From the NCBI RefSeq assembly GCF_003334255.1, contig NZ_QOWU01000277.1: a stretch of 240 nucleotides of DNA. One strand, written 5' to 3'. Every line of letters begins with the position of its first letter. Within the stretch, counting starts at the first letter, position 1. The DNA comes from Escherichia coli (GTDB lineage: Bacteria; Pseudomonadota; Gammaproteobacteria; Enterobacterales; Enterobacteriaceae). A program made the translations under genes and the position numbers. Under the pieces are notes generated by a model. The model was not told the origin of the DNA and did not search any database. It saw only the letters and a program-made list of their open reading frames with translations. Positions 1-240 of this stretch are shown one piece after another.

Positions 1-240
1 TCACTGAGAACGTCCCACGCCTTACGCTGTTGTGCCAGGTACGCATTAAAGGTCATCCGCGGCTCTGTGCCCCCGAATCCATCCGGGACCGTCTGGTCGC
101 AGTACTGCCCGATGGCATACAGCGCCCACTTGTCCACATCCGCCGCCCCCAGGCGTTTTCCCATCCCGTAGCGCGGGTGAGTCAGCATGTCCCACAGGCA
201 CCAGGCCGGGTTGTTGCTGTATGCCGGTTTCAGACTGCCG
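1..240 (-). CDS. J: Internal fragment (partial at both ends) of a lambdoid phage tail-tip / host-specificity protein, lambda gpJ-like (central tail fiber). Codon register is the complement of + positions 3-239, giving 79 complete codons.
   Basis: Seen in sequence: the reverse-complement frame reading + positions 239 down to 3 has no stop codon in 79 codons; the other two minus-strand frames hit stops (e.g. TGA at + 232-234, TAA at + 46-48). Codon usage is strongly biased as in enterobacterial genes (CTG for Leu, CCG for Pro, GCG for Ala; third-position GC about 61/79, or 77%). From memory, not a search: the translation closely matches the lambda gpJ segment ...KPAYSNN-AWCLWDMLTHPRYGMGKRLGAADVDKWALY-IGQYCDQ-VPDGFGGTEPR...NAYL--QRKAWDVLS. 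No start or stop is in the window, so the gene continues past both edges. Confidence 0.88.
1..240. mobile_element. Part of the tail-morphogenesis module of a lambdoid phage or prophage (no element boundaries in window)
   Basis: Inference from the gpJ-like CDS: J-family tail-tip genes are found in lambdoid phage genomes and in prophages of enterobacteria. GC (62.5%) is above a typical enterobacterial chromosomal average, in line with lambdoid tail regions. No att site, integrase or repeat is visible here, so phage versus prophage cannot be decided. Confidence 0.6.

Follow-up and report, generated by a model that had tools for sequence, protein, structure and literature searches.

Which gene does this 240-bp window of Escherichia coli DNA (the whole stretch that was analysed) belong to, is it phage lambda's own copy or that of a relative, and does it say anything about receptor choice? 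J is a trimeric tail-tip protein: its N-terminal hub domains seal the tail tube at its end and keep gpI, gpL, and gpM in place, and the receptor-binding domain is at its C-terminal end. Here, we report that the window is almost certainly an ordinary piece of J from a lambdoid (lambda-like) siphovirus, which most likely resides as a prophage in an E. coli chromosome, and that the window encodes hub residues 262-340. The feature is already known and is annotated routinely.

Identity of the window

Six-frame translation of the window gave, from position 239 to position 3 on the minus strand, a stop-free peptide of 79 codons (GSLKPAYSNNPAWCLWDMLTHPRYGMGKRLGAADVDKWALYAIGQYCDQTVPDGFGGTEPRMTFNAYLAQQRKAWDVLS), and the entire window lies inside the J coding sequence (Table 1). 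Searched against solved structures with phmmer, the peptide matched 8iyk_J ("Tip attachment protein J") at residues 262-340 (E = 1.2e-46). The fragment aligned to NCBIfam lambda_TipJ (NF049904) at profile positions 262-340 (E = 1.2e-54, 185.3 bits; the cutoff of 1950 bits is a whole-protein value, out of reach for a 79-aa fragment alone) and by itself matched PHROG 31 "central tail fiber J" (E = 2e-52). Judged by these matches, the homology of the peptide to lambda J is far beyond chance, and no result speaks against this identification.

An Rfam scan of both window strands (E <= 1) gave no match, no Chi site was found on either window strand, and a repeat search of the window returned just 10- to 12-nt two-copy matches, of a size often due to chance. 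The window also holds a perfect 10-nt inverted repeat (GGCATACAGC / GCTGTATGCC, arms 92 nt apart), which is probably a chance occurrence.

Table 1. Coordinates of features in the window and in the compared loci (2015C-3121, L002; the other four exact-match genomes inspected, L003-L006; PhiR12_1, L007; lambda, L001; VT1-Sakai, L011)
Feature	Sequence	Coordinates	Strand	Basis or remark
Internal fragment of lambdoid prophage gene J (tip attachment / central tail fibre protein)	Window	1..240	-	100% DNA identity over 240 bases to annotated gpJ, seven E. coli chromosomes
79 complete codons, J residues 262-340, hub-domain scaffold	Window	3..239	-	Translation, gapless lambda gpJ alignment, 8iyk_J match
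Stop-free frame, 79 codons, same codon register	Window	3-239	+	Rejected as a gene
34-aa ORF	Window	67-171	+	Rejected as a gene
10-nt inverted repeat	Window	114-123 / 216-225		Probably chance
J, lambda reference	NC_001416	15505-18903		NP_040600
I-J gap	L001	1446-1505		60 bases
J CDS	L002	19219-22749		1,176 aa
J, as scored against lambda_TipJ	L002	19219-22746		2135.9 bits
Match to the window	L002	20001-20240		Within the J CDS
I-J gap	L002	18964-19218		~255 bases
I-J gap	L007	2965-3218		~255 bases
Hypothetical ORF in the I-J gap	L007	3015-3113		99 nt, annotated
J with lom-like gene downstream	L003-L006	3219-6692		1,157 aa
J with window-type segment	L011 (AP000400.1)	13525-14700		Annotated as truncated
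FNIII-A_GpJ	2015C-3121 J	86-207 (residues)		Pfam
Phage-tail_3	2015C-3121 J	331-492 (residues)		Pfam
Ig_J	2015C-3121 J	609-712 (residues)		Pfam
Ig_J_second	2015C-3121 J	714-816 (residues)		Pfam
Phage_Tail_Tip	2015C-3121 J	871-998 (residues)		Pfam

Occurrence and nearest relatives

The nucleotide search for nearest relatives that had been proposed from the sequence-only reading was run, and the exact matches lay in seven complete E. coli chromosomes (2015C-3121, DETEC-S792, S1-KEN-03-A, S1-KEN-04-A, 99RCEF, UCPROB-001, and UCPROB-002), each time in a gene annotated as gpJ. The window's allele type was present in 2,211 of 5,426 complete E. coli genomes and the lambda-type segment in 4,365 of them, mostly at 95-99% identity. 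Both types are common, well-sampled alleles, and many E. coli genomes must carry the two together; the idea that the lambda type is a rare outlier and the window type the common allele is reversed by these counts.

The window might instead derive from a free phage whose genome was sequenced (an induced temperate phage such as those of the PhiR12 or Stx type) and not from a chromosomal prophage: 154 phage records match its DNA (one of them a Salmonella phage), led by PhiR12_1 and PhiR12_4 at 99.2%, and ten phage records hold the 79-aa peptide at 99% identity or more, with PhiR12_2 at 100%. The seven 100% DNA matches are all chromosomal, however, against none in the phage collection, a weak point given that such collections are non-exhaustive. 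We infer that the source is a prophage and consider a free phage genome unlikely; the identity of the feature is unchanged by either origin.

Among the phages, PhiR12_1, _2, _4, and _5 (PV340549-PV340554) are 98.8-99.2% identical to the window DNA, and the peptide of PhiR12_1, like that of PhiR12_2, is identical to the window's. Many long-tailed Stx1a-, Stx2a-, and Stx2c-converting phages, as well as BP-4795, CP-1639, and VT1-Sakai, carry the same allele type at 96-98% DNA identity and 76-77 of 79 residues, from which the window is set apart by two or three residues (G44A, A69S, and sometimes T50M). One further record, MW057783.1 ("Campylobacter phage CJLB-4," 48,361 bases, labelled a Campylobacter jejuni phage), equalled the lambda records in score, identity, and E-value and matched at almost identical coordinates; it has the appearance of lambda DNA filed under another name, through contamination or mislabelling.

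Full-length J and its C-terminal modules

In strain 2015C-3121, a genome with an identical window (its flanks are not the window's own), J belongs to a complete lambda-order late module (terminase, portal, protease, decoration, capsid, tail tube, G/T chaperones, tape measure, M, L, K, I, J, and tail fibre genes) that adjoins aspS-nudB-yebC-ruvC. The full-length protein exceeds the lambda_TipJ cutoff (Table 1). A lambda-order tail module (tape measure, M, L, K, I, J, then lom or tail fibre genes) is annotated in all five exact-match genomes inspected (of the seven) and in PhiR12_1. The 2015C-3121 J shares with lambda gpJ the series of Pfam domains, which runs from FNIII-A through the hub (Phage-tail_3) and two Ig/FNIII domains to the tail tip fibre, and the gene order L-K-I-J; it differs in length (1,132 aa in lambda) and is 62% identical overall. 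The I-J gap is longer in the 2015C-3121 prophage and PhiR12_1 than in lambda (Table 1), and the annotated I protein of these long-gap elements has 193 aa versus 223 aa in lambda.

A source prophage that is defective, with J reduced to a pseudogene or truncated remnant and the segment no longer functional, would be in keeping with the number of matching places per E. coli genome (median, 2; maximum, 12). It would also be in keeping with VT1-Sakai, where the J with the window-type segment is annotated "truncated protein by a mutation" and some copies of this allele therefore lie in defective J genes. The window's 79 codons are open, however, the five inspected genomes all encode full-length J (1,157 or 1,176 aa) without internal stops, and comparison with lambda (below) points to long-term purifying selection, which is silent on recent decay. 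We regard a defective source copy as very unlikely.

The five full-length proteins are of two kinds, one of 1,176 aa (2015C-3121, shared with phage PhiR12_1) and one of 1,157 aa (the other four genomes), the latter followed by a lom-like gene that is absent after the former. At the DNA level the two are essentially identical over the first ~2,100 nt; the proteins are 100% identical over the first ~500 residues and 97-100% identical up to alignment column 800, after which identity drops to 86%, 65%, 26%, and 23% in successive 100-column bins toward the C-terminus (23-26% over the last ~180 columns). The pattern marks a clear recombination junction within J, around alignment columns 800-1000.

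The last 199 aa of 2015C-3121 J found matches of at least 94% in PhiR12 phages only (94.5-96.5%). The C-terminal type of these phages and 2015C-3121 differs from that of the other four exact-match genomes inspected. Against J of lambda and of the Stx phages, the same 199 aa were ~35-37% identical over 79-85% of the query (~37% for the Stx-converting phage ends). Over the aligned part of lambda residues 1001-1132, 2015C-3121 J is just 15-20% identical, which implies a different receptor-binding end. A literature search for "PhiR12," made to learn its receptor, found no paper with that name.

Variation in J had been put forward, from the letters of the window, as relevant to receptor specificity. 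For residues 262-340 this does not hold: the same 240 bases stand on at least two unrelated C-terminal modules, and the window therefore carries no information on receptor specificity. The accompanying suggestion, a role of hub-segment variation in tail assembly, is plausible, and such a role is putative.

Position of the segment within J agrees with this. In lambda gpJ, the FNIII-A insert occupies residues 72-215, and an extra beta-sandwich insert of HDIV occupies residues 483-569 (PMC10721106); the receptor-binding domain is at the extreme C-terminus, past two FNIII domains, an alpha-helical shaft, and a central straight fibre (PMC11101478). Residues 262-340, which lie downstream of the FNIII-A insert and run ten residues into the Pfam Phage-tail_3 match, are therefore assigned to the hub scaffold, well away from the receptor-binding end, a placement bracketed by the ranges printed in PMC10721106 and not taken from coordinates. 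[quoted passage not shown] By analogy with the lambda structures (PMC10721106, PMC11101478), J of the window type would form a trimeric tail tip, bind an outer-membrane receptor through its C-terminus, and do the same structural job as in lambda.

Divergence from lambda

Against the lambda reference (Table 1; gpJ structures, PDB 8IYK and 8XCG), the peptide belongs to the same family and aligns without gaps to the same residues, 262-340, with 70 of 79 identical. The differences (window/lambda) are S/T at peptide position 2, L/F at 3, P/M at 11, A/V at 42, T/S at 50, M/I at 62, F/C at 64, A/T at 69, and Q/T at 70. The sequence-only reading had listed about nine differences and called the remainder identical; the alignment that it proposed bore it out at every position and for both residues of each pair, with no further difference, and gave neither complete identity to lambda nor a segment unlike J.

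Over all 240 bases, DNA identity to lambda is 84.2% (38 mismatches), with 28 of the 38 at the third position of minus-strand codons. Among the codons that differ, 23 are synonymous and 9 non-synonymous, with Nei-Gojobori estimates of ~0.82 for dS, ~0.065 for dN, and ~0.08 for dN/dS. Together, the third-position bias and the low dN/dS mark this as a diverged, functional allele under purifying selection that is not lambda's. The divergence is old and selectively constrained, and is neither sequencing noise nor decay. The longest exact run common to the two is 21 bases, which is why megablast with the window did not return lambda.

A gene on the plus strand, in either of the frames listed in Table 1, would be a reading of vanishing probability. 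Stop-free antisense frames are common at 62.5% G+C, of which this one is probably a by-product; in every annotated record, J is on the strand that matches the window's minus strand; and the codon-position pattern of substitutions against lambda, which marks the minus-strand frame as the one under selection, led us to reject both plus-strand frames. That the window is lambda itself, the nine listed differences being errors, is ruled out by the alignment to NC_001416 J, in which all nine are real, by the 38 mismatched bases, and by the shortness of the longest shared run.

The earlier assignment to a lambdoid relative, with a J allele such as E. coli prophages carry, is thus upheld by 84.2% DNA identity to lambda as against 100% to the seven chromosomal genes and 96-99% to PhiR12 and Stx-converting phages.

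Allele types and their meaning

Across the phages compared, the nine positions form linked haplotypes: SLPATMFAQ in the window and PhiR12_1, SLPATMFSQ or SLPAMMFSQ in three Stx-type alleles (which agree with the window type at seven or eight of the nine), and TFMVSICTT in lambda and PhiR29_1. Within the phage collection, 148 records match the 79-aa peptide with at least 95% identity, another 102 (lambda and derivatives) match it at 80-90%, and almost none lie between. Hub segment 262-340 in E. coli prophages has two common, strongly linked allele types, SLPATMFAQ and TFMVSICTT. These have diverged mainly synonymously under purifying selection, so both should encode working hub domains.

It is possible, if rather unlikely, that the haplotypes mark two hub "compatibility types" that co-evolved with the partner tail-tip proteins gpI, gpK, and gpL. 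K and I of an exact-match prophage are roughly 70% and 59% identical to those of lambda (global alignments, length differences included), a divergence that is compatible with such types and does not demonstrate them. Were they real, lambdoid lineages could not freely exchange hub segments, though they can exchange receptor-binding ends.

In itself, it matters little that the window comes from a gene that is well annotated, in a class of E. coli prophage that is very common. For the biology of these phages, an allele call in residues 262-340 is of no use for predicting host range or receptor, and the hub module of J is conserved and recombines independently of the receptor-binding end.
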